Assembly: GCA_034440535.1 (NCBI GenBank)
Contig: JAWXCD010000125.1
Span: forward strand, 868 to 64,867
Source of the DNA: Verrucomicrobiota bacterium
GTDB taxonomy: Bacteria; Verrucomicrobiota; Verrucomicrobiia; JAWXBN01; JAWXCD01
Length of the DNA: 64,000 nucleotides
Direction of reading: 5' to 3'
Part shown: positions 11,843 to 60,300 of the stretch, piece by piece
How positions within the stretch are numbered: position 1 is the stretch's first letter
How the letters are laid out: every line of letters begins with the position of its first letter
Program-made: the position numbers and the translations under genes
Notes under the pieces: generated by a model
What the model was told of the DNA's origin: nothing
Database searches by the model: none
Seen by the model: the letters and a program-made list of their open reading frames with translations, nothing else

Positions 11843-12841
11843 ATGAGTAACCTCGAAGAACTGAAAGCTGAAGCAGAACAATTTTCCATTACCTACAGGA
11901 AATTGTGCGATGAAATATCAAAAGTCATCGTCGGGCAGAACCGCGTCATTGAATCAACCCTTACCGCGTTGATCTCAGGTGGCAACGTGTTGCTCGAAGG
12001 TGTGCCTGGCCTTGGTAAAACTGAATTAGTCAAAACCATTGCGCGCGTCTTGGACCTTGATTTTAAGCGGATCCAATTTACCCCTGACCTGATGCCAGCG
12101 GATATCGTAGGGACGAATATCATGTCGTCCGATGACAGTGGCCGGTACCGATTTGAGTTTAAAAAAGGGCCCATATTTACTCAGCTACTATTGGCCGACG
12201 AAATCAACCGTGCCACACCGAAAACACAATCGGCACTCCTTGAAACGATGCAGGAAGCCTCTGTGACTACCGGGGGAATTACTTATCCTTTGAAACAACC
12301 GTTCTTTGTGTTGGCGACTCAAAATCCGCTTGAACAAGAAGGAACGTACCCACTTCCCGAAGCGCAGTTGGACCGGTTTATGTTCAAAATGCTTGTTCCC
12401 TTTGTAAGCCGCCAAGAGCTCAATGAAATCTTGCGCCGGACCACTTTGAAACAATCGCAGGACGTGAATAAGGTTTTGGATTCCGAAGGATTACTTCAAC
12501 AACGAGTCGTTTTGGACAAAGTTGTCGTGGCGGATCCCATACGCGATTACGCCGTGCGCTTGGTGTTAGGCACGCATCCAGAAACTGAATTCGCCGTACC
12601 CTCTTTTAAACGGTACATCAATTGGGGCGCCAGTCCTCGTGCTGCACAAGCTTTGATTCGGGCGGGACGCGTGCGTGCGTTGTCGCAAGGGCGTGTGCAT
12701 GTGGCCTACGAGGACATTCGCTTTTTTGCCCAAGAAGTGCTCAACCATCGGGTGTTGCTGAACTACGATGGACAAGCCGAAAATGTGAAAGTAACCGACC
12801 TCGTCCAAGAACTGGTGGGCCATCTCCCCGAAACCGCTTAA
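11843..12841 (+). CDS. moxR: MoxR-family AAA+ ATPase
   Basis: LLEGVPGLGKT, RIQFTPDLMPAD, LLADEINRA and ATQNPLEQEGTYPLPEAQLDRF motifs. Confidence 0.95.
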   Translation: MSNLEELKAEAEQFSITYRKLCDEISKVIVGQNRVIESTLTALISGGNVLLEGVPGLGKTELVKTIARVLDLDFKRIQFTPDLMPADIVGTNIMSSDDSGRYRFEFKKGPIFTQLLLADEINRATPKTQSALLETMQEASVTTGGITYPLKQPFFVLATQNPLEQEGTYPLPEAQLDRFMFKMLVPFVSRQELNEILRRTTLKQSQDVNKVLDSEGLLQQRVVLDKVVVADPIRDYAVRLVLGTHPETEFAVPSFKRYINWGASPRAAQALIRAGRVRALSQGRVHVAYEDIRFFAQEVLNHRVLLNYDGQAENVKVTDLVQELVGHLPETA

Positions 12842-12851
12842 CAGTTGAACC

Positions 12852-13745
12852 ATGAGTCAATCTCAACAACTTACATCGCTCCTGAGTAATGCAACGCTTA
12901 ACCGGTTGCAGCACATGCGTCTGCGGCCGTTCCGACGGTTTACCAATAAGAGCCGGGGGCAGCACGAGCATGGGCGGGGAGGGTCGAGTAATGAGTTTGC
13001 GGACTTTCGTGATTACGTGGCCGGCGATGACATGCGCAATGTGGATTGGAACATATTTGCGCGACTTAACCGACCTTACGTTAAACTGTATCGTCAGGAA
13101 GAGGACATGCACGTTGTGTTGCTCGTTGACGCCTCGAAGAGCATGGATTTCGATGGAAAGTTTCTAAAAGCACAACAATTGGCCGCCGCGATTGCGATGA
13201 TGGGGATACAAGCCACAGAGCGGATCAGCATTCAGGCGTTTGCAGGACAACAACTCCAGCGATTGGACCCGTGTACCGGCCGGGCAAGTCTTCAAAAGAT
13301 ATTTAGTTTTGTAGAGCGGTTAGGAGTCGGAGGGCAGGTTCCCGTCGAGAAGGGGATTGAACAATTGCAGAGGTACCATAAAGGACGTGGCATGGTTGTG
13401 ATCCTCTCAGATTTCCTAACGATGAACGCCGATCTAAAATCCGCGTTTAATAGGTTGTTTAGCACCGGGTTGGAAATTTATGGAATTCAGATACTGGCGC
13501 CCGTGGAACGAAATCCCGAACTCACCGGAGACCTGCGGTTTGTGGATAGCGAAACAGAACAACTCCTCGACGTCACCGCCGTCGGGGGTTTGCTTGAGAT
13601 ATATCATGAGTACCGAAGTGGATTGGAAAACGATCTGACCGTGTTGTGCCAGCAGCGTTCGGGTCGGTTTATTTCGGTTGATTCTACAGAGACCGTCGAA
13701 GGAGTTTTATTTGATACCATGAAGCGCAAGGGATGGGTTAAATGA
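12852..13745 (+). CDS. DUF58 domain protein
   Basis: GSSNEFADFRDYVAGDDMRNVDWN, LVDASKSM and ILSDF motifs; adjacent to moxR. Confidence 0.92.
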   Translation: MSQSQQLTSLLSNATLNRLQHMRLRPFRRFTNKSRGQHEHGRGGSSNEFADFRDYVAGDDMRNVDWNIFARLNRPYVKLYRQEEDMHVVLLVDASKSMDFDGKFLKAQQLAAAIAMMGIQATERISIQAFAGQQLQRLDPCTGRASLQKIFSFVERLGVGGQVPVEKGIEQLQRYHKGRGMVVILSDFLTMNADLKSAFNRLFSTGLEIYGIQILAPVERNPELTGDLRFVDSETEQLLDVTAVGGLLEIYHEYRSGLENDLTVLCQQRSGRFISVDSTETVEGVLFDTMKRKGWVK

Positions 13746-15610
13746 ACTGGGGCGGTTTTCATACTCCAGCGTTCGCTTGGCTTTTCCTTCTGTTTATCCC
13801 ACTCGTTCTATTTTATTTCCTGAAGTTAAAGCGTCCCCGGCAGGTGATCCCGTCATTGGCGTTGTGGAGGCAGGTGTTACAGGACAGACGAGTGAATGCT
13901 CCGTTTCAAAAATTTAAGCGTAACATACTTCTCATCCTTCAACTTTTACTACTCCTTTTATTGGTGCTTGCAGCGCTCCAACCTTTTTGGCGTGGGAACC
14001 AAGGATCAGGAACCTCCCGACGCCCTATTATTATAGATTGCTCCGCGTCGATGGCCGCTAAGGATCACGAATCTGGCAAAACGCGACTTGAACATGTGAA
14101 AGAAAAAGTGGCCGCGATCATAAATGGTCTTGGGCCAGGTCAGGAACTGAGTTTGATTACTTTCACACAATACGCACGCAAGCGGACGGAATTTACCGGG
14201 AACAAAACAACATTGCACAAGGCACTTAAAGAAATAGAAGTTGAAGACGTCCCCGCAAATGTAGAAGACGCGCTCCGGTTGTGTCAGGCACTAGCGAAAA
14301 GATTCACGTTTAATACAGTACTCCTCTTTTCAGATGGAAATTTTGCGCACTCGGTTGATGTTGATTTGTCCTTTACCCTTGATTACCAGAGAATCCCTTT
14401 TGGCGGCGATAATATGGGCATTACTGCTTGTAACGCCGTGAGCAATTCCAAGGGAGAATGGAGCGTTTTTGTCCAGGTTGAAGGTTCATCAAAGGAATTA
14501 AAATCTGCTAAGATTGAGATTATCCAAGATGGAGTGAAGAAAGTTGAGGATTCGTTGCTCGTTGGGAAAGAACGAGCTGAACGAATTGCCCTTACAATAC
14601 CGGGGTCAAAAGCGTCCACGATAGAAGTGAAGCTTGTTCCCGAAGGTGAAGATGTCCTTGCGACGGATAACCAGGCTTGGCTTCAGCTTCCGTTAAACCG
14701 GCCCCTGCTTGTTTATGTGAATGAGGCTATGAGCGCCTATAAAATGGCACTCAAAGGCATACCTGGAATAGCAGTCGTGACAGATAAAGTGAAGTTCTCA
14801 GCCGCAGACTTAGTGATCACGGATGACCCGAACGATAAAGGGATACTGACACGTACCGCCCTTTGGGTGGGGACAATACCTGAGGCATTAAAAAAGCAGG
14901 TCACCGTAAAACAGGAGAACGCAGCCGTGGTTGACTGGATGCGTGAGGCCAAGCTCCTTCAGCATGTGGCGCTTGATGACGTGATCGTATTGGACAACCC
15001 TCAAGCCCCGGATGTGAGAGATGAAGTGTGGGAAAATGAAGGATACCGCGTACTCGTGAGCGGAGCCCAGGGGCCATTGTTACTGGAGAAAAATGTTCCT
15101 GGAAATCACGTGTATTATATGTTGTTTCATAGTGATCGCTCTACCTTGCCGTACAGAATTGCTTTTCCCATCTTGATAGCCAACCTCATTGAGGAAGCGA
15201 GGCATGATGCCGGTTTGTCCGAAACGTTACCTGGTCGCACGGGTGTGGTAGAGCCACAGTTAGGGACAGTCGGAGGAAAGTACACCTTTGAAGGGCCCGG
15301 AGTGCGATCAACGGACGTGACCGCCGATGAAGCCGGAATGATTTCGGGACTTACAGCCAGCAAGGTTGGTGTGTATAAAATCAAGGGAGCAACTGAGACG
15401 AAAGTTGTTACCGCAAGTTTACTGAGTTCTTCAGAGACACGATTGGATGCTGTGGAAAAGATTCAGTTTAAGGAAACATTATCCGTGGCAGCATCCGGGA
15501 AGTCTGAAAAGGCGGATGTCCCATTATGGACGATTATGGCTGGCTTAGCGTTTTTGATGGTGCTCATTGAGTGGTGGTACTATCAGCGGCGCCCAGAGGG
15601 AGTCGAATAG
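13742..15610 (+). CDS. BatA N-terminal double-TM + VWA domain protein
   Basis: PLVLFYFLKLKRPR..PSL.LW BatA-type N-terminus; MIDAS DCSAS and FSDG; C-terminal TM ending IEWW. Confidence 0.88.
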   Translation: MNWGGFHTPAFAWLFLLFIPLVLFYFLKLKRPRQVIPSLALWRQVLQDRRVNAPFQKFKRNILLILQLLLLLLLVLAALQPFWRGNQGSGTSRRPIIIDCSASMAAKDHESGKTRLEHVKEKVAAIINGLGPGQELSLITFTQYARKRTEFTGNKTTLHKALKEIEVEDVPANVEDALRLCQALAKRFTFNTVLLFSDGNFAHSVDVDLSFTLDYQRIPFGGDNMGITACNAVSNSKGEWSVFVQVEGSSKELKSAKIEIIQDGVKKVEDSLLVGKERAERIALTIPGSKASTIEVKLVPEGEDVLATDNQAWLQLPLNRPLLVYVNEAMSAYKMALKGIPGIAVVTDKVKFSAADLVITDDPNDKGILTRTALWVGTIPEALKKQVTVKQENAAVVDWMREAKLLQHVALDDVIVLDNPQAPDVRDEVWENEGYRVLVSGAQGPLLLEKNVPGNHVYYMLFHSDRSTLPYRIAFPILIANLIEEARHDAGLSETLPGRTGVVEPQLGTVGGKYTFEGPGVRSTDVTADEAGMISGLTASKVGVYKIKGATETKVVTASLLSSSETRLDAVEKIQFKETLSVAASGKSEKADVPLWTIMAGLAFLMVLIEWWYYQRRPEGVE

Positions 15611-15633
15611 AGAAGTCCTCGAAAGAAAACGAA

Positions 15634-17637
15634 ATGAACCTATTTCATAAAGTCACATTCATCATGATCCTCGTTTGCTGTGTTTGGCTCGATAAGGCCG
15701 GGGCGCAGGAGCAACCACTCAAAGTGCGCCTGAGTGCATTCCCACCTAAGATTCGTTCATCTGCACCTTTTCTAATGAATTTTCAAATCGACTATAGTGG
15801 TGACGCGTTGATTCAAGGCGATCTCATTTTAACGGTAAAAAACGGGAACGATGTTTTGTACACGTATAGCATTCCCGGAATAGCTGTCACAACAGGCCAA
15901 CAGAGTTATCAATTTTTAATGCCTCCACTGAATCAAGGGTACTCCGACCAGTTGGATGTGGGAGCCGTTATTGTTGGCAAAAAAGGCTCATATTCCCTTG
16001 GGTCCACATCGATAACGAAGGATCAGCCCGGCATGCGTGTTGTGGTCGTGGCTATGAGCAGTCGTTCCAGTCGTTTGAGCGAAGAAGAAAAAATGATTCA
16101 AGCGTTGCTTCGCCAAGAACGAATGATGCCTGATGAACCGCAGTTAACGAGGGCGTTGTCGACAGTGCCAGCGTTGATAAGGCCGGAGGAAATTCCGGTG
16201 AGCCCAATGAGTTTTTGCGCGTTTGACGGGCTGGTACTGTCGGGGGAAGGTTTCACCGATTTAAAACCCGCTCAAATGATGGCGATCAGGCAATGGGTGC
16301 TTGCGGGCGGAAAATTGGTGGTCTACCCAAAAGGGCCGGGGAAACAAGCGCAGGCTGATTTTTTAAATGACCTACTTAAAGGAGTGCCCAATGCCCCCGT
16401 TGTCACAGTGGATTCAACGGGTGTACTCTCCATGGCAGGCGTTGAAAATATCCTGCCTTTTTCTGTGTACCGGACAGGTTTAGGCCGACTTTTATGGGTC
16501 ACGTCCTTGCCTCAAACAGAACCGGAGATGACTTCGGAGATGGGCGAGAGCTTGCTGAAGTTCTGGAACATACGGAAATCACAATGGGAATCCACTAAGG
16601 CATCAGGCTTATGGAATCTAGATCTCCAAGTCATCCCGGACAAGCACAAGAATCAATTTGTATACCAACAGAATAACCCAAATGGCATCCTAGGGAAGGT
16701 GACTTCGTTTCTTCCAGGGCCCATATTAAATGGAAGTACAATCGTTAATACTTTAATGCCTGCCAAAGTGCAGGTCGTACCTTTCTGGATCATTGTTACA
16801 CTTTTGACGAGCTTTGTGATGGTGATAGGGCCCATTGATTATTACATTCTCGGATACTTTAAGATGAGGCGATATACGTGGGTTTTTTTCCCGGTCGTTT
16901 CGCTTATTTTTGCAATAGGGACTATTTTAATATCCAACCACTATTTAGGCCGGGACAACTCCCATCGCCGAATTATTGTACGCGACAGTTCCCCCTCTGG
17001 GGTGGTGGTCCGGGAGGTGACTATTGATAATTACTTCGCCGGTACGAGTATGATGCTGCAGCGCAAGGAGGAAGGTGTGATCGTGGCAGAGATCTCCCCG
17101 AATGCGCTTCGGATTGATTATAATTATAATATGCGTGGAAACAATCAGCCGGGTTTGTTGAGTTCACCAGGGACTTATTTAGGCAGGTTTCCTTCACGTT
17201 ACCAATACGAATTGGGATTGAAACAATGGTCTCCACAGGCACTGCGTACAATTAAGATTATAAAGGACCCCGTTCAATCGCCGTTCAAATGGCAGTCTTT
17301 GGATTTGGCTGCCCTTGAGGATCACACCTCTGAGCAACTTATTAAAAAGCTAGGGCTTCCCTCTGGTTTTTTAGGAACTGTTACTGTTATGCACAGTGGT
17401 AACTCCCTAGTTGTTTACCAGAACGACCAGCCCATAGACCAGACGATCGTTGAAAGTCTGACTACCCACCTACAAAGTGGATATTTTTCTATTATGTCAT
17501 CCATATCTCCCAATGGTTCAGCGCAGTTGGAGGATGTTCAAATACTTGATCAAACGGACCCTAATCAATGGGTGATCATTATTGCGGAGAAAAGCGGAGT
17601 GGATGTCGTGATGCATAGGTGTCTGTACGAATTTTAA
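15634..17637 (+). CDS. Large exported/membrane hypothetical protein of VWA/MoxR operons
   Basis: Signal peptide; 'IRQWVLAGGKLVV' GATase-like segment; two central TMs (VIGPIDYY..RRYTWVFFP). Start reassigned to 15634. Confidence 0.8.
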   Translation: MNLFHKVTFIMILVCCVWLDKAGAQEQPLKVRLSAFPPKIRSSAPFLMNFQIDYSGDALIQGDLILTVKNGNDVLYTYSIPGIAVTTGQQSYQFLMPPLNQGYSDQLDVGAVIVGKKGSYSLGSTSITKDQPGMRVVVVAMSSRSSRLSEEEKMIQALLRQERMMPDEPQLTRALSTVPALIRPEEIPVSPMSFCAFDGLVLSGEGFTDLKPAQMMAIRQWVLAGGKLVVYPKGPGKQAQADFLNDLLKGVPNAPVVTVDSTGVLSMAGVENILPFSVYRTGLGRLLWVTSLPQTEPEMTSEMGESLLKFWNIRKSQWESTKASGLWNLDLQVIPDKHKNQFVYQQNNPNGILGKVTSFLPGPILNGSTIVNTLMPAKVQVVPFWIIVTLLTSFVMVIGPIDYYILGYFKMRRYTWVFFPVVSLIFAIGTILISNHYLGRDNSHRRIIVRDSSPSGVVVREVTIDNYFAGTSMMLQRKEEGVIVAEISPNALRIDYNYNMRGNNQPGLLSSPGTYLGRFPSRYQYELGLKQWSPQALRTIKIIKDPVQSPFKWQSLDLAALEDHTSEQLIKKLGLPSGFLGTVTVMHSGNSLVVYQNDQPIDQTIVESLTTHLQSGYFSIMSSISPNGSAQLEDVQILDQTDPNQWVIIIAEKSGVDVVMHRCLYEF

Positions 17638-17652
17638 AACCAAAGAGGTGAT

Positions 17653-18585
17653 ATGGCGTTTGTTGAAATAAAAAATCTGGGTGTGAAGTACGGGAAGTTT
17701 GTCGCGGTTAAAGATCTCTCTTTTAATATCGAGAAGGGGAGTGTGTTTGGATTTATCGGACCTAACGGCGCGGGTAAATCTACGACCATCAAAGTTTTGG
17801 CAACTCTGATAAAACCTTCCAGTGGTACGGCCACGATTGACGGGATGGACGTAACAAAACACACACAGGACATTCGGCGGCGGATCGGATATGTACCCGA
17901 TTTCTTCGGCGTATACGAAGACCTGACTGTTAACGAGTACCTCCACTTTTTCGCGGCTGCTTATCGGATACCGCGTACAGATCGGGATTCCATCATTGAC
18001 GACGTGCTGGCTCTCACCGATTTAACGGTAAAGAAAGATGCCGGGGTTGATGGATTGTCGCGGGGCATGAAACAACGATTAGGACTCGCGCGCGTTTTGT
18101 TGCATGATCCCGACCTGCTCCTGCTTGATGAGCCTGCCAGTGGGTTGGACCCCAGAGCGCGCATCGACATGCGGGAATTGCTGAAAGAACTGACAAAACT
18201 TGGAAAAACGATCATTATTTCGAGTCACATTCTTTCTGAGCTCGCTGAGCTCGCCACCCAGATAGGAATTATTGAGGCCGGAGAGTTGATCGCCGAGGGG
18301 AATCTCAACGACATCTTTAAGCAGCTTTCGGTACGCCGGATTGTTCATGTCCAGTTATCCAACGTCAACGATGACCTCATTTCAAAAATTAAAGGGATCA
18401 GTGGGGCGTATCAGGTCGACGTTATGGCTGATCGGCTCGGAGTCCATATCAAGGAAGAAGAGCTCGCCATTGAAGATTTACTCCAACGCATTCAACAACT
18501 AGGCGGGCGTGTCCGCATGTTCCAACCCGACGCCATGGACATGGAGACAGTGTTCATCAAGTTAACCAAGGGTAAACTGGCGTAA
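17653..18585 (+). CDS. ABC-2-type (CcmA/DrrA-like) ATP-binding protein
   Basis: GPNGAGKST, LSRGMKQR, LLLDEPASGLDP and ISSH motifs. Confidence 0.93.
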   Translation: MAFVEIKNLGVKYGKFVAVKDLSFNIEKGSVFGFIGPNGAGKSTTIKVLATLIKPSSGTATIDGMDVTKHTQDIRRRIGYVPDFFGVYEDLTVNEYLHFFAAAYRIPRTDRDSIIDDVLALTDLTVKKDAGVDGLSRGMKQRLGLARVLLHDPDLLLLDEPASGLDPRARIDMRELLKELTKLGKTIIISSHILSELAELATQIGIIEAGELIAEGNLNDIFKQLSVRRIVHVQLSNVNDDLISKIKGISGAYQVDVMADRLGVHIKEEELAIEDLLQRIQQLGGRVRMFQPDAMDMETVFIKLTKGKLA

Positions 18586-18699
18586 GAAGCCTTTGTTCTT
18601 TGCTTTCTGACTGCGCGACACTAAATTTCGTGGGTGTTTGCGAAAGGCCACGGTTTGTGACCCTTTAGATGGAGCACCGCTGATAAATTCTAATCTGAT

Positions 18700-20949
18700 A
18701 TGAAACTTAATAGTCCAATACCTCCGTTTGCCGTGGTCCTTAATCATTTTAACGGAACAACTCCTAATGTCCGGCACGTTGTTGATATTTCGGGCGGAGG
18801 TCGTGGACAGTTCGTTGACGATAAAAACAATTCGTGGAACTGGACTCTTTCGGTCAAACCTACCCACTGTAATGGGCACGAAGGATCGGTGATCGAGGTC
18901 AGTCTTACTTTGGAGAAAGGTTCGGCCGACGCTGTGAATTTGTCAGTGGAGTTTACTGAAAATGCATGGAGCACAGAGAATTTCGTCCTTGTTCCCGGCG
19001 CGGTCTATAATGGGAACAGATATACTTCGCGCCGTATTATGTACCCGCCAATGCTGACTGAACCTTCAGAGATTGGACCGGATGTGCCGTGTATCATAAG
19101 CGATATACCGCGCCTTAATATTAATCCAGGACTTTCACGGTTTCATCTTATATCGGGGGATGCATCGATTCCTGCGCTCGGCTTTTTTTCTCCTGAACAG
19201 AAAAAGCAACAGTGGATCATGATCAATCAAGAAAGTGGTTTTGGAGATCATGGACTTTGGCTTGAAGAAAGTGATGACCGGAAGCGGGCGACTTTGGCGG
19301 TTGAAACTCCCGGAGTGCGGCGCGGGCAAAGCTTTAGCCTCATGTCGATGATGAGGGAATCAAGGGACGTCGCTGCGAAGGTTGAGCCTGGTCAGACGTT
19401 GTCGATAAAGGTTATGGTGTTTGGTGGAAAGGCAGATCATGTTCAAGATCTATTCGACACTTTGGTAGACTTGCGGAACGTCGCAACCCCGGAACCGAAG
19501 CTCAGGAAAGAACTGCCTTTTTCGAAGGCCTGGGAAATTCAGGAACGAAAATTCAACCTTCACAACTTTCAACTCGACAAAATTTTCGCTGGGACAGGTG
19601 ATCCCCATATGGCCGCTTGGCAGCCCGGATGGACAGGGCATGGGATGGTGACCCAGACCTTTCTGAGTGAAGGGACATCCTTATCCAAGGAGCGAGCGAA
19701 GACCACTTTGGACTTTTGTTTTATTGAGGCCCTTGCTCCGAGCGGGTATTTTTACGGATTCTATACCAAGAACCGAGGGTTCTTTGGAGACCATTTTGCG
19801 CATCAAGATTGGCCTTGGCACTTGCTTCGTAAAAGCGCGGATATGTTGTATTTTGGATTCCGCCAATTCGATGTGTTAAAGAAGCAGAATCCCGATTGGA
19901 AATGTCCGCTGGAGTGGGAGAAGGGAATCCGACGATTGGCCGATGCATTTGTTAAAACGTGGGATCGATATGGGCAGCTTGGGCAATTTGTAAACCACGA
20001 CACAGGCGAAATATTAGTCGGAGGGTCCACCTCAGGATCAACCGCCCCAGCAGGGTTAGCACTTGCGTCGATTTGGTTTAAAGAGGCGCGGTACTTGGAA
20101 GTGGCAGAGGCCATTGCGCGTAAGTATTGCCAGGAAGATTTGGCGAGTGGAGTGACCACTGGAGGACCAGGTGAGATTTTACAGGCTGCCGATAGCGAAT
20201 CGGTCGGGAATTTACTTGAGTCGTTGGTCGTGCTTTACGAGGTGACGGGTCGGGAAGAGTGGTTGAAGCAAGCGCAGATTGCCGGGGCGCAATTAAATTC
20301 TTGGTTTGTGTCGTACGACTACACATTTCCGCCGCAGTCGACCTATGGCAAACTTGATATGTTAACGACGGGTACGCTCTATGCCAGTACGCAAAACAAA
20401 TGTGCGGTGCCCGGGTTATGCACGCTCTCGGGGGACGCGCTGCTCAAGCTGTTCCGAGCCACGGGAGAGGAACATTGGCTGCGACTCCTTCGCGAATTGA
20501 CCCACGCGCTGCCCCAGTTCTTGTCACGCGAGGACAAAGTGATCGCCGGAATGCCCGAAGGTTTCATGAGCGAACGTGTACAGATGGGCGATGGAATTGA
20601 TCCTTGTGGCGAAATTTGCGCTTGCTCGTGCTGGAGCGAGGTGTGTCTGATCTTTGCATGGATGGAAGTTCCGGGAATTTATATTCAGACGGATACTGGC
20701 ATCCTGAGCGTGAATGATCATGTGAAGGCTGAAATTTTATCGCAGGACAAAGACGTAATGGTTGTGGCGATCACGAATCCCACATCCTTTGAAGCTACGG
20801 TCAAAATTTTGGCCGAGACCAAGAGCGAAAGCCGCGTATTGTTGGGTCAAAACTGGAGCACACGCATGGTTAAGGTCACCATTCCTGCAGGTGAATCCAA
20901 GTCGATCATGATTGTAGGTGGGCAGATTGAAAACCATTTAAGCAATTGA
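18700..20949 (+). CDS. Hypothetical cytoplasmic protein, probably with an (alpha/alpha)6-barrel glycosidase-like fold
   Basis: 749-aa ORF without a signal peptide. Helical repeats such as 'LYEVTGREEWLKQA' and 'LFRATGEEHWL' are typical of six-hairpin glycosidases. Confidence 0.65.
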   Translation: MKLNSPIPPFAVVLNHFNGTTPNVRHVVDISGGGRGQFVDDKNNSWNWTLSVKPTHCNGHEGSVIEVSLTLEKGSADAVNLSVEFTENAWSTENFVLVPGAVYNGNRYTSRRIMYPPMLTEPSEIGPDVPCIISDIPRLNINPGLSRFHLISGDASIPALGFFSPEQKKQQWIMINQESGFGDHGLWLEESDDRKRATLAVETPGVRRGQSFSLMSMMRESRDVAAKVEPGQTLSIKVMVFGGKADHVQDLFDTLVDLRNVATPEPKLRKELPFSKAWEIQERKFNLHNFQLDKIFAGTGDPHMAAWQPGWTGHGMVTQTFLSEGTSLSKERAKTTLDFCFIEALAPSGYFYGFYTKNRGFFGDHFAHQDWPWHLLRKSADMLYFGFRQFDVLKKQNPDWKCPLEWEKGIRRLADAFVKTWDRYGQLGQFVNHDTGEILVGGSTSGSTAPAGLALASIWFKEARYLEVAEAIARKYCQEDLASGVTTGGPGEILQAADSESVGNLLESLVVLYEVTGREEWLKQAQIAGAQLNSWFVSYDYTFPPQSTYGKLDMLTTGTLYASTQNKCAVPGLCTLSGDALLKLFRATGEEHWLRLLRELTHALPQFLSREDKVIAGMPEGFMSERVQMGDGIDPCGEICACSCWSEVCLIFAWMEVPGIYIQTDTGILSVNDHVKAEILSQDKDVMVVAITNPTSFEATVKILAETKSESRVLLGQNWSTRMVKVTIPAGESKSIMIVGGQIENHLSN

Positions 20950-20982
20950 GTTCGAGTGTAAAAGTTGTACTTTTGAGGCGTT

Positions 20983-23241
20983 ATGACTGAAGTAGTTTTA
21001 AAGGATTATAGTCTCGTTGGAAAAAATACTCAGATAGCCATTGAGAGTGGGTGGGCGGAAGCCGATTGGTACACGTCCCCCGTGCCCAAAGAAAAAATGC
21101 GCGAACTCCTGACGCGCAAAAACGGGCCAGCTATTCGTGATACGATCATCTGGTTCGGTTTATTGATAGGTGCCGGGTACGGTATTTACACGTTATGGCC
21201 CAGCTGGTGGGCGGTGGTTCCTTTTCTCATCTATAGTGTCATCTACGCATCGAGCTCAGATTCGCGCTGGCACGAATCACTTCACGGCACAGCGTTTAAG
21301 ACTGATTGGATGAATAACGCGCTGTACGAAGTTGCTTCTTTTATGGTGGTGCGTGAATCGACCGTCTGGCGTTGGAGTCATACAAGACATCATAGTGATA
21401 CTATTGTCGTTGGCCGCGATCCTGAGATCGCTGTACCGCGCCCCGCAAATTTGAAATCGATCATCTTTGCCTTTTTGAATTTCGGAGCATGGCCCGCTTA
21501 CATCCGCACGGTGTTGCTTCATTGCACGGGTAAGTTGACCCCCGCCGAGAAGACTTTTATTCCCGAGGAAGAGCATTACAAAGTCATCTATAAAGCATGG
21601 ATCTATTTGGTCATATACCTGAGTGTCATCGCTTGGGCGATCTATTCGCGCAGTTTTCTTCCCTTTTTATTTGTGGGGCTCCCCAGTTTTTTTGGATGTT
21701 GGCTGATGCCGATTTACGGGTTGACCCAGCATGCGGGGCTAGCCGAGGACGTGCTTGATCATCGGTTGAACTCTCGCACGGTCTACATGAACTTCATAAA
21801 TCGGTACCTCTACTGGAACATGAATTATCACGTTGAACATCACATGTTCCCACTCGTGCCTTATCATGCTCTCGCGAAACTGCATGAAATTGTGAAGCCA
21901 GATATGCCGACTCCCTACCGGAGTATTTGGCATGCGTACCAAGAAATTATTCCCGCCATTTTAAGGCAGAGAACAGACCCGGGTTATTATGTGAGGCGCG
22001 AACTCCCCGCACCAGCGCCCGAAATGACGTCGCATCATTCTTCCAAAGCTGTGACCACTTCCAAGCAAGCGGATGCAGAAGGGTGGATCGAAGTGTGCGC
22101 CTTTGATAGATTGGAGTCGGAAGACGTGATCCGGTTTGATCATCAGAAGCGGACGTATGCGCTTTATCGTACTGCGCAAGATGAGCTTTACGCGACCGAC
22201 GGTATTTGCACGCATGGCAATACGCATTTGGTCGATGGATTTGTAAAAGGAAAACTTATCGAGTGCCCCAAGCATAATGGGCGGTTTGATATAACCGATG
22301 GAACAGCGAAACGCAGCCCAGCGTGTGTTGCATTAAAAACATATCCCACGCGTGTGAGTCAGGGCCAAATTTATCTTAACATCGCCAAAGCAGAGTTGAA
22401 AGAGCCCGAAACAACGTATGCGTTTAAGGTTGTGAGCAACAATAACGTGGCCACGTACATTAAAGAACTCGTGCTTGAACCACTTGATGCCTCCATGCGT
22501 TATACACCAGGGGATTATTTGCAGCTCGATATTCCGGCCTATGGAGAAATAAAATTTCAGAACATGCAAGTCGCGGAGCCGTATTCCAGCGTGTGGAAGA
22601 CGCATCATGTGTACGACTTGGCCGCCGTAAACGACGTGCCTCTCCGCAGGAACTACTCGTTTGCGACTAACCCCAAAGTGGACAAACTACTCCGGTTTAA
22701 CGTGCGCATTTCGACCCCGCCCCGCGGTCAGGCGTGTAACGCTGGGTTAGGTTCTTCATACGTCTTTAATCTTAAGCCCGGTGATCAGGTGACCGGGGTG
22801 GGGCCTTTTGGGGATTTCCATATCAAGGACACTCAAAAAGAAATGGTGTACTTAGGCGGAGGAGCTGGAATGGCACCCCTGCGGTCCCATGTTTCTTATC
22901 TTTTCGACACTTTAAAAACCAATCGTAAAGTGAGTTTTTGGTACGGAGCACGTTCTCTTCAAGAAATGTTTTATCAGGACTATCTTGAAGCATTGGCCGC
23001 CCAGTTCCCGAATTTTACTTTTCATCTCGCGCTCTCTGAACCACAACCGGAAGACGGCTGGACATCGCACACTGGTTTTATCCACGAGGTGCTTCGCGAA
23101 AAGTATTTAAGCCAGCATGCAAACCTTGCTGAGGTGGAATTCTATCTGTGCGGCCCTCCTGTCATGATTAAAGCCGGAACAGAAATGTTAGCTGATCTTA
23201 GAGTTGGCGCTGCCCAAATTGCATACGACGAGTTTAATTAA
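20983..23241 (+). CDS. Fusion: MocD-like fatty-acid-desaturase-family oxygenase + Rieske [2Fe-2S] ferredoxin (MocE-like) + NqrF-like FAD/NAD(P)H reductase
   Basis: His boxes HESLH, HTRHH and YHVEHH; Rieske ligands CTH...CPKH; reductase motifs RNYS, GGGAGMAP, YLCGPP and C-terminal YDEF. Confidence 0.88.
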   Translation: MTEVVLKDYSLVGKNTQIAIESGWAEADWYTSPVPKEKMRELLTRKNGPAIRDTIIWFGLLIGAGYGIYTLWPSWWAVVPFLIYSVIYASSSDSRWHESLHGTAFKTDWMNNALYEVASFMVVRESTVWRWSHTRHHSDTIVVGRDPEIAVPRPANLKSIIFAFLNFGAWPAYIRTVLLHCTGKLTPAEKTFIPEEEHYKVIYKAWIYLVIYLSVIAWAIYSRSFLPFLFVGLPSFFGCWLMPIYGLTQHAGLAEDVLDHRLNSRTVYMNFINRYLYWNMNYHVEHHMFPLVPYHALAKLHEIVKPDMPTPYRSIWHAYQEIIPAILRQRTDPGYYVRRELPAPAPEMTSHHSSKAVTTSKQADAEGWIEVCAFDRLESEDVIRFDHQKRTYALYRTAQDELYATDGICTHGNTHLVDGFVKGKLIECPKHNGRFDITDGTAKRSPACVALKTYPTRVSQGQIYLNIAKAELKEPETTYAFKVVSNNNVATYIKELVLEPLDASMRYTPGDYLQLDIPAYGEIKFQNMQVAEPYSSVWKTHHVYDLAAVNDVPLRRNYSFATNPKVDKLLRFNVRISTPPRGQACNAGLGSSYVFNLKPGDQVTGVGPFGDFHIKDTQKEMVYLGGGAGMAPLRSHVSYLFDTLKTNRKVSFWYGARSLQEMFYQDYLEALAAQFPNFTFHLALSEPQPEDGWTSHTGFIHEVLREKYLSQHANLAEVEFYLCGPPVMIKAGTEMLADLRVGAAQIAYDEFN

Positions 23242-23254
23242 ACCTTAAACTCAT

Positions 23255-24310
23255 TCAGACTTGGGGCAGGGAGCTGAACTTATAAACAGTCTTTTGCCGA
23301 TACTTTTCCCCTGGGCGCAGAATGAAGGGGTCAATCTCCGGTCTGTTTACGCCGTCCGGGTATCCTTCACACTCAAGGCATAGACCTGCGTGCGCGCGGT
23401 ACGGCACGCCGGTTTTGCCCACCAGCGAACCGTCAAGCGAAACCCCCGTGTAAAATTGGATCCAGCTTTCCGTGGTAAGAACTTCCATGACCCGACCCAT
23501 GGCTGGAAGACTTAACTTTGCCGCCGGTTCAAGGGCATCGGGAGATTGACGCTTGATTTTATATGTGTCCCCGTGCTTTTTCCAAAGGTGCGGAATGGCA
23601 TCGCCCACTTTTGTTGGTGAAGTGAAATCGTTTCCTTGCCCAGTGACGGAAGCCAGTTTTCCCGATAAAGTCATCGCTTCGTCTGCGGGTACAAATTGAT
23701 CCGAAAAAATCTGAAGCACATGATCTTCGATTGTACCCTGACCTTCGCCAGCTAGGTTAAAATAGGAGTGGTGCGTAAGACTCAGGGGAGTTGATTCAGT
23801 CGTTGTGGCTTCCTGATTAACTACGAACTGATTATCTCCGGTGAGCGTGTAGGTGACCGCAACTTCGACCTGCCCTGGGTATCCTTCTTCACCCGCAAGA
23901 CTCGTGTACGTAAAGCGTACGGACGATGAGTCTGCGGTGTCTTCAACGATTTCAGCGTGCCACACTCTTTTGTCAAAACCAACAACCCCCCCGTGCAAAT
24001 GATTCGGAGGATCGTTCAGAGCTAATTGGTAAATTTTTCCATCCAATGTAAACGTGCCCGCTGTCAATCGCCCCGCGACTCGTCCCGTGATGGCCCCAAA
24101 AAACGGATGTCCAGCGAGGTAGTTTGCCAAGGAATTAAAACCTAAAACGATATCGACCGGAGGTTTGTTCTTTTCCCATGGCACGCGAAGTTCGGTGACG
24201 ATACCCCCAAACGTCATAGCTTTGAGCGTCATGCCGTTGCCATTGGACAGAGTGTAAAGTTCGATCAACCTACCATCAGGGAGAAATCCGAAAGGCTCAG
24301 AAGTAATCAT
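23255..24310 (-). CDS. galM: Aldose 1-epimerase (galactose mutarotase)
   Basis: GRVAGR, NHLHGG, GEEGYPG, THHSYFNL, QFYTG and GLCLE motifs. Confidence 0.92.
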   Translation of the reverse strand: MITSEPFGFLPDGRLIELYTLSNGNGMTLKAMTFGGIVTELRVPWEKNKPPVDIVLGFNSLANYLAGHPFFGAITGRVAGRLTAGTFTLDGKIYQLALNDPPNHLHGGVVGFDKRVWHAEIVEDTADSSSVRFTYTSLAGEEGYPGQVEVAVTYTLTGDNQFVVNQEATTTESTPLSLTHHSYFNLAGEGQGTIEDHVLQIFSDQFVPADEAMTLSGKLASVTGQGNDFTSPTKVGDAIPHLWKKHGDTYKIKRQSPDALEPAAKLSLPAMGRVMEVLTTESWIQFYTGVSLDGSLVGKTGVPYRAHAGLCLECEGYPDGVNRPEIDPFILRPGEKYRQKTVYKFSSLPQV

Positions 24311-54360: not shown

Positions 54361-57300
54361 ATGCTGGTCGAATTTCGAAACATAACGTTCAAGATATTTC
54401 TCTTTTTTGCTTTTATGAGCACAGCGGAACTTTGTCGTGCACAAACAGTGTGGACGAACGGAGCTGGGACTACTTGGGGTACAGCCGGCAATTGGAATAG
54501 CGGCATTCCCGGTGCAACATCCGCCGCTTATTTTACAAATTTCTTCACCAACACGACCATTACGATCGACGTTGGGGCAAACCGGACTTTTGATTCATTA
54601 ATCTTTAGTGGCACAAACGCTTATACTTTTAATAATAACCGATTCCGACTTCAAGCAACGACCAGTACGGGTATCGTTCAAAATTCTTCCGCAGACGTAA
54701 CCGTAAACTCCACAATTCGCTTTGATGCATCGAAAACATTTACTGGAAATGGTGCGGGTCTTCTTTCTTTAAACGGAATAGTTTCTCAAAATGGTGGCCC
54801 ATGGAGTTTTACAAAAGATGGGACGTTTAGTTTATATTTAGGAGCCGCAAATACATTTTCGGGCGGGTTTATCCACAATGGGGGTGCTGTTATTGCAGGG
54901 AATAACGCCGCGTTTGGTGCTAGTGCTGGCACTCTGACGATTAATGGAGGCGGCACCTCGGTCGTTAGTGCGAATGCGACTCGCACTGTGGCCAATAACT
55001 TGGCTGTTAATACAAATGTGATGTTTGTACTGACTAACGGAAATGACTTCACTTTTTCAAGCGGCACGGTTTCAGGAGCGGCAGGTTCTGTTGTTACAGT
55101 CACTAATACGGGCGCAACCCCTTCAACGTTGGGTTTTTCTGGAAATGGATTCACGTATAATGGAAATTTTCAGCTTCTAGCTAACACTGAGCTTGGTTTG
55201 CAAAATGGAGCTGGAACTCAAACTTTTGCAGGCTTGGTTTATGGGGCAGGTTCTACTCTTAAAAGTGGGGGTGGGACGAGCATTTTGTCAGTTTCTAATG
55301 CCTATACGGGCGGTACCATCATCCAAGCCGGGGAACTTATCGGGGCCAATGTGAATGCTCTCGGTGGTAGGGATGTCACTTTTAACACGGCTGCAGGTAT
55401 TTTGGGGGTGCGAGGCGGTAATTTGACGTTGAGCAATCTAACCGCAACATCAGCGGCGACTTTGCAAATCAATGAGGCTGCAGCTACTGCACTTAATAGA
55501 TCAATCGATATCTACGGAACAATTTCCGGCGCGGGTGGCGTCACGGTGGGCGACGGCGTGAATACAACGGGAGTATTAACGCTTAACCTTCTCAACACGA
55601 ACGCTACTCATACTGCGGCAATTAACCTAGACGGAGGAACGGCAGCACGTCCAGGGGTTCTGCAAATGAGCCATGCATCAGGGACGCAAACGTTGTCGGG
55701 AATCATTTCGGGAGCGGGCGGAACGGTTCTACAGTCAAACACGGGCACTACGATTTTAAGTGGGATCAATACTTATGGAGGAGGGACGATAATTAGTAAT
55801 GGTGTTCTGGTGGCTACTGGGAACAACTCGGCCATGGGCTCTGGAAACGTCACTTTAGCGGGTGGCACAAATCGTATACAAAGTTTAAATGCGGTAGCAA
55901 ATAATTTTAATTTTAATGGGGGTGTACTTCAGGCGGTGGCAGGTAGTTCACCCGTGGGTTTGTTCGGGGTTATTACGATGAACTCAAATGGAGTTATTAT
56001 TACTGATACAAATATAACTCTTGGAAATGCGGCGAATGAATTAACTGGGTCAGGAATGCTGATTAAAGAAGGCGCAGAAAAACTTATTTTGGGATTTGCC
56101 AACAACAATTCAGGTGGAATCCAAGTGAATGCGGGAACTTTGGAGGCTAATAACGCGGCGGCCATGGGTTCTGGAACATTAACCATGAATGGCGGTACGC
56201 TGACAGCTAACGGAAGTTACACCTATGCCAATGCGTTAAACGTCCTCACTAATAGTTATTTGGTAGCAACAAATGGTAATAGTTACACCTTTTCAAGTGG
56301 TAGTATTTCAGGTCAATTGGGGGCGACGTTTTATTTTACGAACACTGGTGCAGGCACATCCTCGCTCAACCTCACCGGAAATGGGTTCGATTATCAGGGC
56401 GGTCTCTTTTTGTCCGGTCCAAATAGCACAAAACTGTCCTTTCAAAATGCAGCGGGTAGTCAAACTTTCTCGGGTCATATTTACGGGTCCGGCTCTGTCG
56501 AACGTATCACGGCCGGTGGCACGACTGTGTTTGCTGGTGATAACACTTATACAGGCGGTACGTTAATCCAAGCGGGAACCCTTGAAACCCAAATTGGGGA
56601 TACACTTTGGTCGTCATTAGGTTCAGGTGTTGTTACATTAAACGGCGGCAATTGGAGGGCAACGACACGTCCTCAATATTACAGTAATTCAATTGTCGTT
56701 CAGAATCCTGCGGTGAGTTATCTGATTGCAGATACAAACTTAATTCTTGCGGGCCAGATCACGGGTACGGGAACATTGAACAAGAGCGGGTTAGGCTTGG
56801 TCACAATGAGTAATCTCGCAATGAGCGGGGGTACACTTAATATAGGTTACAGTACGACTTCGGGTGGGCCTGTGCTTTTAACAGGGCCTAATGCCGGTTT
56901 GGCGGCAGCGATTAATGTGGGGTCGGGAGTCGGAAATTCGGGAACGAGCACGTTGCGAATTGCAAATGCTTCTGCTCTTGGAGCTGGTGCGGTTACCATC
57001 AATGGAGATAATGCAAATGACCGCAGTATGCTTTATCTTGATAACAACATTCTTGTAAACAAAGCGATCACTATAAACACGCTTGCTCAGGGTAATCAAA
57101 GTGATGGTGTTGCTGGGCTCGGTTCATGGTCAGGAACGAATACTTACAATGGTACCATTACACTTAACGGTAATGCGGTCGCTTACAATGTTGTTAATTT
57201 TGATGTTCAAGCAAATAGTACATTGATTTTAGGAACAGCTGCCACAGCGGCCCGGTTTGCGTTGCCCGCCGATAGATATTTTCCCCTAGCAAAAATAGGT

Positions 57301-60300
57301 GCTGGTACCTTGATCATCAGTAATGTCAATTACACTTTTGCTAATGCTAATTCCTATAATTGGTGGCAATTCCGCGAAGGGACTTTGGAGACGGTTTCTC
57401 AGCAAAGTAATCTGACCAATGGCCTTGGTAATATTTACCCAGACTTTCTTGGAGGGACTTGGCGGATTTCAACAATCAACCAGACGTACGGCGTGAACAC
57501 GTGGGGCTCTGGATGGCATGATATTGCTGGTCAAAATTCAAAGATCGAAGTGATGACGAATATCTATCTTGGGTTGCAAGAACGTTTCCAATTGGAGGGG
57601 GCCACAACCAATGTTGGTGAAATTGTGAGTATCACGGGTGATGGATATTCTAAATATTGGAGGGCGACCGCTGCAGGGGGTTGGATGCCTACAGTGGGAG
57701 CGGCTGGTCGTATTGCTTTGGTAAGTGGAATTTTAGAAGGCAGCACAAACATGGGGTCCGGCACTGAAACGAATGGTGATGCCCTTGTTTCTGCACGTTT
57801 TCGTTTGCAGGGGGGAACAATCGCACTTGGGCAAGATTATTTTCCTGAGGACATCATTTTAGCAGTAGGCGGCGGGACAATTATGATGTCAGAGGACGCG
57901 AACACTAATGGCATTGCAAACCGAATTAACTATATCCGGGAAATTGGTTGGGACAACAATGCTGTGGGTCTTGCCGCCTCGGCGGTTTACGATGATTCTT
58001 ATGGAAGTGGTTCGGAAATCCATGGCGGGCCACTCACCTTTAATATAGCGGATGTTAATGACTCCCTCGTTTTGACAAATAATCCTTTAATAAATGGTGA
58101 TGGGAATGTCGCGGTCATTAGGGGATCCAATACAACGGTGACTGTGACAGGTAACGGGACCTTGGTCATGGCTGGGACGGGGACAAACACTTACATGGGG
58201 AATACCTACGTTAACGGCGGTACGTTAGCTTTGAATAAACCAACCGGAATTAATGCTTTCCGCACAAACCTTATTATCAGTAATGGCACAGCAATCTTGT
58301 GGAATGGGAATCAGATTGCTGATACGGCCTTAGTCGAAGTGCATAATCAGGGTACATTTAATTACAGCAATTTCACTGAAACTGTGGGTGGATTGAGGAT
58401 GAGCGGTGGAACAATCACGGGCGGCACGGGGGTACTAACGCTCAATGGAAATGTCGTGGGTCTTTCTTCAACTAACACCCCTTCTATTTACGGAAATCTT
58501 AACCTAGGTGGCACCAGTCGCACATTTACAATCGACGGAAATATGAACGTTGGTGCGGTGATCACTAACGGGGGTTTGATTAAAGAGGGCACTGGAGTTT
58601 TAAATTTCATTGGTTCAAACGCGAACACTTATACCGGCCAAACGGTCATCAACGCAGGCACCCTTGATCTCCGAAATCCATCTGGAGTCGTGGGAATCGC
58701 CGGGTCCGTTTTGATTAATTCCAATGGTACGCTCAGCGGCCTTTCGAGTAGGGTCGCAGGACTCGTTACAAACTATGGGACTCTTTCGCCCGGGGGTGCA
58801 TCGGGGGTTGGAACGATGACTTTTGATACGAACTTAGTTTTGATGAACTCCTCGACGTCTTTGTTTAATTTTCTTTCGACCACCTCCTTTGATAGTAATT
58901 ACGTAAGCGGGGTCCTCATTATCCAGCCGAATGCAGCACTGAATCTTGATTTCTCATACGATCCGACTCCTACAGATTCGTTCGCAATTTTCCAAGTGGG
59001 TTCAAGCAATATTTCTGGGTTATTCACCAACATAAATTTCCTCGGATCTGCTTTGAGCGGTCAGTTTGTAACCAATGCTAATGGGTCTGTAGTCATCAGT
59101 AATGTCATCGCAGCGAACTATGTTTGGGACAGCGGCGCCTCTGATAACAACTGGTCAAGTCGGACAAATTGGTTTGGTGATAACACTCCGGTAAACGATG
59201 GTCGCGCTAAACTCATCTTTGCAACGAACAGTATTCGTTCCACGCCTTTTGTTGATACCAACTGGTTTGTTCGGTCACTTTTATTCACGAACAACATCAA
59301 TTCATTTACAATGTCGGGCAGTAACATCCTGATTAAAGGCCAGCTAGGAACTGGTATTGTACAAAACGCGGCCAACGCACAGCGCATTAATAACAGCGTG
59401 ACTTTGGCGACAAACCAACTCTGGTTGGCTGGAGGGGGCGACTTAGTGCTCGGGGGAGTAGTGGATACGGCTGGATTCAATTTTACGCTCGCCGGCATTT
59501 CAAACTTTATTTTTACAAACGGGTCGTCACTTGTCCTTTCAAATAACAGCTTACATAACAGAGCGGGAAGTTTGGTTATCAATGGCACCGGCAGCAACGG
59601 GACAGGGGTTTTAAGAAGTTTGGGCGGTAATAGCGTGGTGACGGGGAATGTCTCGCTCTTAGGTTTGGCTGGAATCGGGGTCGATTCGGGAATGTTACTC
59701 ATGTCCAATACGATCAATGGCGCGGGTGACCTCGTAAAAGTTGGCGCAGGAACTTTGAATTTGTTGGGCGCAAATACTTATTCTGGGTCCACAACTGTCA
59801 GTAACGGAACACTCCTCGTCGGATCCGCTCAAGCTTTAGGTTCGGCTAATACAAACGCCGCTACTGGAACACGCGTCATTTCGGGCGGGACTCTAAGTCT
59901 TTCAAATAATATCACGATTACCGGTGAGCTTTTAACATTGGCCGGTAATGGCGTTGGGGGAACCAATGGGGCTTTAAACAATTTAAGCGGTAACAACCGT
60001 TTTAATTCGCCTCTGGTCCTTTCGGGGAATACGCTCATTGTTTCAACAACGAACACTTTAAGTTTAGGTACTAATGGTACGACGTTTGAAGTGAGCAACG
60101 CCGGGAATACCTTAACGTTAAATGGTGCGGGTGATATTCGATTCAATAGTAGTGTCTCCGGGACGGGTGGGTTAATTAAAAACGGGACTGGCACTTCAAC
60201 TTTAGCTGGTGCTTCAAATAGTTTTACTGGCGATACGTATGTTTATGGCGGGGTGCTTGTCTTAAACACATCCAATTCGCATCCCGGCAATGTAATTATC

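Follow-up and report, generated by a model that had tools for sequence, protein, structure and literature searches.

The window analysed here is a stretch of 64,000 nucleotides from a Verrucomicrobiota bacterium (GenBank assembly GCA_034440535.1, contig JAWXCD010000125.1, positions 868 to 64,867 of the forward strand). It carries a gene whose product joins, in a single chain, an N-terminal domain of the membrane di-iron desaturase family, a Rieske [2Fe-2S] domain and an FNR-type reductase module expected to bind flavin adenine dinucleotide (FAD) and reduced nicotinamide adenine dinucleotide (NADH) (Table 1). The open reading frame (ORF) starts with ATG and has zero internal stops, according to both the ORF listing and the translation. 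This layout, put forward in an original prediction, is borne out by the ORF call and by Pfam and NCBIfam models, and all the motifs named at that time are present at the residues checked (97, 133, 283, 409-431, 556, 625, 723 and 748).

Table 1. Position of the fusion gene, of its parts and of other features in the window (aa, amino acids)
Feature	Position	Strand	Details
Three-domain fusion ORF	20983..23241	+	complete, 752 aa, stop codon included
FA_desaturase (Pfam)	21199..21933	+	residues 73-317, E 1.7e-33; whole N-domain about 1-345
His box 1, HESLH	21271..21285	+	residues 97-101
His box 2, HTRHH	21379..21393	+	residues 133-137
His box 3, HVEHH	21829..21843	+	residues 283-287, Y282 just before
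Variable Pro/His-rich linker, LPAPAPEMTSHH...	22000..22083	+	residues about 340-367
Rieske [2Fe-2S] domain, MocE family	22084..22383	+	residues 368-467; Pfam Rieske 368-455, E 3.1e-16
Rieske ligands C409, H411, C428, H431	22207-22275	+	CTH...CPKH, residues 409-431
NqrF-like FAD/NADH (FNR-type) reductase module	22417..23235	+	residues 479-751
Upstream gene run	11843-20949		MoxR (AAA_3), DUF58, BatA/VWA, 688-aa ORF, GldA-like ATP-binding cassette (ABC) ATPase, 749-aa ORF
749-aa ORF, last of this run	18700-20949		weak GH127 and GH76 hints, E 0.003-0.03; no PDB sequence match
Aldose 1-epimerase (GalM-like)	23255..24310	-	Aldose_epim E 1.1e-75
2,691-aa ORF with passenger-associated transport (PATR) repeats	54361-62433	+	
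Gfo/Idh/MocA gene	62532-63638		sole one of the window

The match to FA_desaturase (PF00487) reaches 116.9 bits against a cut-off of 29.7 and extends over model positions 1-251 of 253. The three His boxes fit the patterns HX3-4H, HX2-3HH and HX2-3HH, with eight histidine ligands. The NAD_binding_1 model matches residues 624-731 (E 9.1e-18), and FAD_binding_6, at residues 541-613, is just under its cut-off (20.6 bits vs 21.1). The reductase motifs RNYS (556-559), GGGAGMAP (625-632), CGPP (723-726) and YDEF (748) are in place. The module thus displays the RxYS and GGxGxxP signatures, the C-terminal aromatic residue (F751) and the two-domain fold of the FNR type. The Pro/His linker predicted between the oxygenase and Rieske domains is present; it is unconserved among homologues and modelled with low confidence (predicted local distance difference test, pLDDT, below 50 at residues 346-354 of the full-length predicted model).

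Authenticity, conservation and spread of the fusion

The source looks like a metagenome-derived assembly of 138 contigs, a setting in which separate genes could have been joined by mis-assembly or by read-through. Contigs of four other public runs (X4-X7), none flagged as a possible source of the window DNA, match positions 20700-23400 without a single mismatch or gap. They read across both junctions between domains (about nucleotides 21934-22084 and 22383-22417), the interval 21380-22789 being covered by X4 record 2 alone. No stop or frameshift lies between the domains, the four other runs being identical across the junctions. In a protein search, 6,751 of 8,000 scored candidates were found at E <=0.001. 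Among the matches listed (n = 120), all are 751-809 residues long, cover 99-100% of the query with 63-79% identity and contain PF00487, PF00355 and PF00175 together. With one genome counted per species, at least 597 species genomes contain relatives (597 of 599 pattern-matched stretches encode them), and, of the 80 loci kept, a script recovered an unbroken fused ORF in 76. The script did not find it in L011, L028, L072 and L080, the match in L080 running to the end of the stretch. In the sample of the window's phylum, 22 of 301 genomes have a complete, stop-free fusion, four of these 22 in two copies. Faced with the bridging contigs and with this recurrence, the artefact reading is refuted.

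Partial or split copies occur in three further genomes of the same sample. In one genome of the phylum, the copy at G080:C29:19149-21463 is read as two adjacent pieces, corresponding to query residues 8-611 and 603-751, and may be frameshifted or broken.

The residues expected to hold the cofactors are kept in 40 of 40 full-length homologues drawn from at least five phyla. They comprise the eight box histidines, the Rieske ligands, R556, S559, G625-P632 and F751. The box histidines (H97, H101, H133, H136, H137, H283, H286 and H287) are invariant in a 30-sequence set as well, and five extra histidines outside the boxes (positions 180, 250, 260, 295 and 301) are invariant in the 40 homologues. 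Because of the bridging contigs, the homologue counts and these invariant residues, the fusion gene is considered real, under selection and widespread. Its carriers belong to Verrucomicrobiota, Acidobacteriota, Chloroflexota, Bacteroidota and other groups, rhizobia not being among them. The family tree is not congruent with the phyla: a Flavobacteriaceae copy is nested among those of Verrucomicrobiota, and Acidobacteriota and Pseudomonadota copies lie inside a Verrucomicrobiota group (L052, L007, L059, L061). This incongruence suggests that the fused gene was transferred horizontally between phyla.

Shorter relatives are also found, many of them Rieske+FNR proteins of 360-410 residues or FNR-only proteins of about 335 residues, and many are on very short contigs. 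Of three Rieske+FNR proteins checked, P0128 and P0216 begin inside the Rieske domain and correspond to cut gene calls; P0154 has a whole Rieske domain. In the reductase tree described below, the shorter forms fall scattered within the fused clade. Because of the short contigs, the two cut gene calls out of three and the scattered positions in the tree, no real two-gene intermediate is claimed. A gene of 487 codons with FA_desaturase and Rieske domains and no reductase was observed at G218:C28:3757-5220 (L111:3257-4720); its product is distant, with 34-37% identity to the first two domains of the fusion.

Kinship of the three modules

The N-terminal domain had been compared with MocD, the desaturase-like protein of rhizopine catabolism, and its phylogeny agrees with this view. 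The 44 fused N-domains group as a single clade in a tree of 54 rows, with a support of 91 in the Shimodaira-Hasegawa-like approximate likelihood ratio test (SH-aLRT). This clade is sister to a clade of five proteobacterial MocD proteins (SH-aLRT 98), with a joint support of 97; the fused sequences are therefore sisters of MocD and are not nested within it. Identity to the five MocD-type proteins is 54-56%, with 54.5% for the MocD of a Phyllobacterium plasmid, which belongs to a genuine moc locus. The two unfused paralogs of the window's genome (29-30% identity) and the G218 desaturase+Rieske protein fall outside the group made of fused and MocD sequences. Weak matches of the N-domain to the L-arginine hydroxylase GntB and to CrtR were also obtained.

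One of the two unfused paralogs is an FA_desaturase-family protein of 363 residues, with about 30% identity to the N-domain, encoded at C92:9095-10186 on the minus strand and convergent with FolD. The other, desaturase-like and of 404 residues, is encoded on contig C133, where neither a Rieske nor a reductase gene adjoins it.

As judged from a predicted model (pLDDT 72.5), the N-domain folds like membrane di-iron enzymes. In a wide search with VIA-align, the model matches 8xks_K with a Z of 16.6 over 290 aligned residues. With the same program, Z is 8.8 over 263 residues for FtAlkB (8sbb_A) and 4.9 for SCD1 (4ymk), unrelated rows having Z <=5.1. The modelled helical hairpins are at residues 47-71/75-100 and 195-222/226-239; a strict hydropathy scan flagged residues 201-247 alone. 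Foldseek returned nothing at E <=0.001 with this model, and a profile of 30 N-domains found no sequence relative among solved chains, the sole match (E 0.71) being noise.

The Rieske domain is MocE-like, as had been proposed. It passes the MocE family model TIGR02377 narrowly (137.0 and 141.7 bits vs a cut-off of 136.15) and shares 50-53% identity with four split MocE proteins.

The reductase module was said to resemble the C-terminal part of NqrF, and both profile and fold comparisons uphold this. It obtains 322.1 bits with the nqrF model TIGR01941, above the cut-off of 295, yet it matches model positions 130-403 of 405 alone. Against the FAD domain of NqrF (7qu5), the template modelling score is 0.97 (for the target), with a root-mean-square deviation of 1.2 Å and 47% identity. 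The module is 42-47% identical to solved NqrF FAD domains, and 42-54% across all NqrF comparisons. Taken at face value, these results would make the protein subunit F of the Na+-translocating NADH:quinone reductase. However, the fusion is without the N-terminal membrane helix and the plant-type 2Fe-2S domain of NqrF, and TIGR01941 gives 560-653 bits, over positions 1-405, with nine genuine NqrF from the window's phylum. A phylogeny of 72 reductase modules places the fused proteins, the Rieske+FNR proteins and the shorter forms together in a 60-row clade (SH-aLRT 96), separate from the nine genuine NqrF. Finally, the window's genome (2.98 Mb in 138 contigs, 97.29% complete) contains no match to NqrB (TIGR01937) at E <=0.001 and no second NqrF above the cut-off. 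By domain content, profile coverage and phylogeny, the fusion is judged not to be NqrF, and this reading is refuted.

The concern that automatic annotation could mislabel the gene as nqrF has proved real, since homologues carry 'NqrF' as their source-assigned name. The naming is systematic because the C-terminal two thirds alone suffice to pass the TIGR01941 cut-off of 295. Three shorter Rieske+FNR proteins pass it as well (300-346 bits).

The split MocF is a Pyr_redox_2/Reductase_C protein, and its similarity to the reductase of the fusion is undetectable. The module is therefore NqrF-like and not MocF-like, as originally suggested. From these sequence relationships, the fusion is composed of MocD, MocE and a non-homologous, NqrF-derived reductase.

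Gene surroundings of fused and split systems

In the window, a 33-base gap separates the start of the fusion from the preceding gene run. No promoter-like site was found in this gap and no terminator-like site after the fusion (scan of 20600-23600; counts not usefully above shuffles). The convergent aldose 1-epimerase gene ends 13 bases past the stop codon of the fusion, and a PhoR/PhoB-like two-component pair lies beyond it. None of mocR, mocA, mocB and mocC is beside the fusion in the window, the Gfo/Idh/MocA gene being about 39 kb off. As an independent observation, the long ORF with PATR repeats listed in Table 1 has smaller PATR counterparts on contig C133 of the same genome.

Neighbours were surveyed at 77 loci, including the window, with at most six called ORFs considered to either side. 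Aldose 1-epimerase genes occur at 18 loci, at 15 of them directly upstream and on the same strand, and in other genomes this family is the commonest one directly upstream of the fusion. AraC-family regulators form two clusters (14 and 5 loci). Sugar transporters of the major facilitator superfamily (MFS) are present at 12 loci, RhaT-type transporters at 7, the mutarotase RhaM at 6, and Gfo/Idh/MocA proteins and aldo-keto reductases at 4 loci each. Plant-wall glycosidases and esterases recur beside fused loci. The typical order is a reverse-strand AraC gene, followed on the forward strand by galM, the fusion, a gene for a 295-residue protein and an MFS gene. A sugar-type gene is found within three genes of the fusion at 33 of the 77 loci. 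The neighbour types are dispersed through the family tree, with no clean split by clade that would define substrate subclasses.

The 295-residue protein represents a triosephosphate isomerase (TIM) barrel family without Pfam match. It is found at 22 loci, at 17 of them directly downstream and on the same strand, with a related cluster at 3 more (25 loci in all), and it is present in every major clade of the fusion tree. Invariant positions in the alignment of the family are E131, H133, R134, D159, H162, H192, R194 and E250, and its profile matches the xylose-isomerase-like TIM barrel AsbF (E 3e-6). It is homologous to the TIM barrel gene directly after the split mocDEF of Acidiphilium (hhalign probability 99.7%, E 5e-27), and in Mesorhizobium and Rhizobium binae, mocDEF clusters linked to LacI are flanked by TIM-barrel genes. 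Five copies of the family are encoded in the window's genome (two in tandem at C69:7557-9245, then C8:2870-3700, C133:633-1445 and C62:18246-19061). The C133 copy is directly upstream of the unfused desaturase-like gene of 404 codons, and the C8 copy adjoins a Gfo/Idh/MocA gene.

Genes related to corrinoid-dependent methyl transfer also appear in the survey, namely URO-D/MtaA-like proteins at 7 of the 77 loci, RACo at 3 and MtaB at 3. At L008:14607-19661, as well as in L079 and L019, an MtaB-like methanol:cobalamin methyltransferase, a URO-D/MtaA-like protein and RACo stand beside the fusion operon. Such sets belong to some Acidobacteriaceae and Verrucomicrobiota loci and may provide an oxygen-independent route for the same methyl groups. 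Separately, a multi-pass membrane protein of about 332 residues, which has no Pfam family and at most a weak resemblance to DoxX (E 0.63), is encoded convergently to the fusion at six Acidobacteriaceae loci (L014, L039, L041, L044, L045 and L050; L045:12223-13221, minus strand, for instance).

The split systems offer a point of reference. The original prediction regarded it as established that MocD, MocE and MocF of rhizobia are separate proteins proposed to demethylate a rhizopine. The demethylation of 3-O-methyl-scyllo-inosamine by MocDEF is a genetic model and not demonstrated biochemistry (Bahar 1998, as cited in PMC13434037). The split genes of Sinorhizobium meliloti are SMb20818-20820 (PMC11387232), and in Pseudomonas syringae a gene called 'xylA2' comes after mocDEF (PMC5132102, PMC13434037). 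Non-rhizopine mocDEF clusters are still termed unresolved in a 2026 review (PMC13434037). The Phyllobacterium plasmid locus contains, in its upstream part, a GntR-aminotransferase MocR-type regulator, a sugar-binding protein (MocB-type) and a Gfo/Idh/MocA oxidoreductase; then come the desaturase-like gene, MocE, the FAD reductase, a PanB-like gene and PurU. Across five plasmid loci, the one-carbon (C1)-type genes following split mocDEF are a PanB-like hydroxymethyltransferase (4 of 5), PurU (2 of 5) and FolD (1 of 5); the Acidiphilium split locus has no PanB-like, PurU or FolD gene.

Proposed activity and comparison with known systems

From the domain order and the known behaviour of each module, we infer the direction and order of electron transfer. 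NADH would reduce FAD in the C-terminal FNR-type module, and single electrons would go from FAD to the Rieske [2Fe-2S] centre of the middle domain. This centre would then hand them to the His-ligated di-iron site of the MocD-type domain, at the cytoplasmic face of the membrane. There, the di-iron site would activate O2 for the hydroxylation of a small polar substrate at a C-H bond; a precedent in the family for a small soluble substrate may be seen in the weak match to GntB. The likeliest target would be an O-methyl group carried by a sugar or cyclitol imported from plant or algal material. Its hydroxylation would yield a hemiacetal, which would give the free sugar and formaldehyde, that is, an oxidative O-demethylation. 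A reaction of this kind is the one suggested for rhizobial MocDEF with 3-O-methyl-scyllo-inosamine.

Considering sequence kinship and gene context together, it can be proposed, with a probability of about 0.6, that the fusion is a self-sufficient oxygenase that O-demethylates a methylated sugar or cyclitol. The type of reaction and the class of substrate are suggested by three arguments: the kinship with MocD, in the light of the 1998 genetic model; the C1-handling genes of the split operons; and the mutarotase, transporter and regulator neighbours of the fused genes, which fit a free sugar that is imported and converted to a common aldose.

Several observations weigh against this proposal. 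The aldose mutarotase fits a sugar substrate and is uninformative on a methyl ether. No sugar-type gene lies within three genes of the fusion at 44 of the 77 loci, and no PanB, PurU or FolD cluster was found among the recurrent neighbours of fused loci. In the window, the convergent galM is the single sugar-type neighbour; the run of genes upstream has an unrelated content, and the fusion has neither a transporter nor an AraC regulator nor a TIM barrel next to it. In the window's genome, glutathione-dependent formaldehyde dehydrogenase and hexulose-phosphate synthase (TIGR02818, TIGR03128) gave no match above cut-off, other routes not having been surveyed; FolD, an example of the tetrahydrofolate route, is present. 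The full-length predicted model has a predicted template modelling score of 0.58, which leaves the inter-domain geometry uncertain. In the full-text literature searched, neither a description of the fusion nor any MocD biochemistry was found.

These observations bear on an alternative that we consider unlikely while giving it real weight, namely that the enzyme, equally self-sufficient, hydroxylates or oxidises a sugar, a cyclitol or another small polar metabolite and removes no methyl group. The C6 methyl of a 6-deoxy sugar (rhamnose, fucose) or a ring C-H would then be the site of attack. The architecture and the sugar neighbourhood apply equally to this possibility, to which the RhaT and RhaM genes, pointing to deoxy-hexoses, are favorable. 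The lack of obvious C1-handling genes at the fused loci, the lack of a formaldehyde dehydrogenase or hexulose-phosphate synthase match above cut-off in the genome and the plain hydroxylases of the family (the weak GntB and CrtR matches) go in the same direction. However, the nearest relatives are MocD proteins, whose operons contain PanB-like, PurU and FolD genes that fit the release of a C1 unit, and corrinoid methyl-transfer genes adjoin some of the fused loci.

A self-sufficient lipid desaturase or hydroxylase, acting on acyl chains or other membrane lipids, is improbable. The membrane-embedded domain, the Pfam FA_desaturase match with its three His boxes, a weak match to DesB and the many loci devoid of a nearby sugar gene can be invoked for it. 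However, the N-domain falls far short of every lipid-desaturase equivalog model, DesB yielding 33.6 bits against a cut-off of 500 (DesA was not reported for the N-domain). A grouping of the N-domain with lipid desaturases, the outcome that the original prediction had singled out as contrary to it, was not seen: the domain groups with MocD and away from the genome's own desaturase-like paralogs. Moreover, no lipid-synthesis genes were found among the recurrent neighbours, which instead include mutarotases, sugar transporters and AraC regulators.

If O-demethylation is retained as the preferred reading, a broader proposal can tentatively be made, to which we would give somewhat less than even odds. 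The family could constitute a second, P450-independent class of carbohydrate O-demethylases, based on a membrane di-iron site with the whole NADH-to-O2 chain in one polypeptide. Verrucomicrobiota, Acidobacteriota, Chloroflexota and Bacteroidota of soil, peat, freshwater and mats might use it on methyl-etherified plant and algal sugars, some genomes pairing it with the O2-free corrinoid system (MtaB/MtaA-like/RACo). In many plant and algal sugars, methyl ethers stand in the way of ordinary degradation. If the proposal is true, a widespread single-chain demethylase in bacteria of soil and water, abundant and yet poorly cultured, would close a gap in the biochemistry of the carbon cycle. As no separate partners are needed, the fusion would also offer the easiest route to test the chemistry of MocD-type oxygenases, a question dating from the 1998 rhizopine model. 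In addition, thousands of database entries are wrongly named 'NqrF', which can mislead inferences of sodium-dependent respiration in these phyla; in the genome studied here, no NqrB was found. The enzyme class, its ubiquity and the systematic mislabelling are solid, the function being put forward as a hypothesis.

One known system to compare is the cytochrome P450 system of marine bacteria, in which a CYP236A-type P450, a ferredoxin and a ferredoxin reductase demethylate 6-O-methyl-D-galactose (PMC6292453, PMC9400963). It was the only carbohydrate O-demethylase returned by the literature searches. There, as proposed for the fusion, a free methylated sugar is oxidatively O-demethylated with NAD(P)H and O2, and the sugar and formaldehyde are formed. 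However, the P450 system uses haem and three soluble proteins, whereas the fusion would be a single membrane-bound chain with a di-iron site. In addition, activity was demonstrated for the P450 system and is inferred for the fusion.

The AlkB-rubredoxin fusions and XylM/XylA belong to the same oxygenase fold class, as reflected by the FtAlkB match. To our knowledge, a complete NADH-to-oxygenase chain in a single polypeptide is not the usual form of these systems. AlkB-AlkG (8f6t) and XylM/XylA provide a precedent for joining or pairing a membrane di-iron hydroxylase with an iron-sulfur carrier and a reductase. Their carrier is a rubredoxin or a plant-type ferredoxin and their substrates are hydrocarbons, whereas the fusion has a Rieske domain. 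XylMA is mentioned as an analogue of MocDEF in PMC13434037.

With NqrF, the fusion shares the FAD/NADH fold and the RxYS, GGGxGxAP and C-terminal Phe motifs. In NqrF, a plant-type ferredoxin domain precedes the FAD domain, whereas a Rieske domain occupies this place in the fusion. This arrangement may preserve the geometry of NqrF, in which the electron carrier directly precedes the flavin domain.

Of all known systems, MocDEF is the closest. Both have sister-clade oxygenases, MocE-family Rieske domains and a TIM-barrel accessory gene, and both occur in a carbohydrate or cyclitol setting. However, MocDEF consists of three polypeptides and the fusion of a single chain; the fusion has no MocF equivalent and possesses an FNR-type module instead; and its neighbours (GalM, RhaM) point to aldoses, not to an inosamine. 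Thus, the gene described here is a fused variant of MocDEF with a swapped reductase, found in other phyla and in an aldose-type context.

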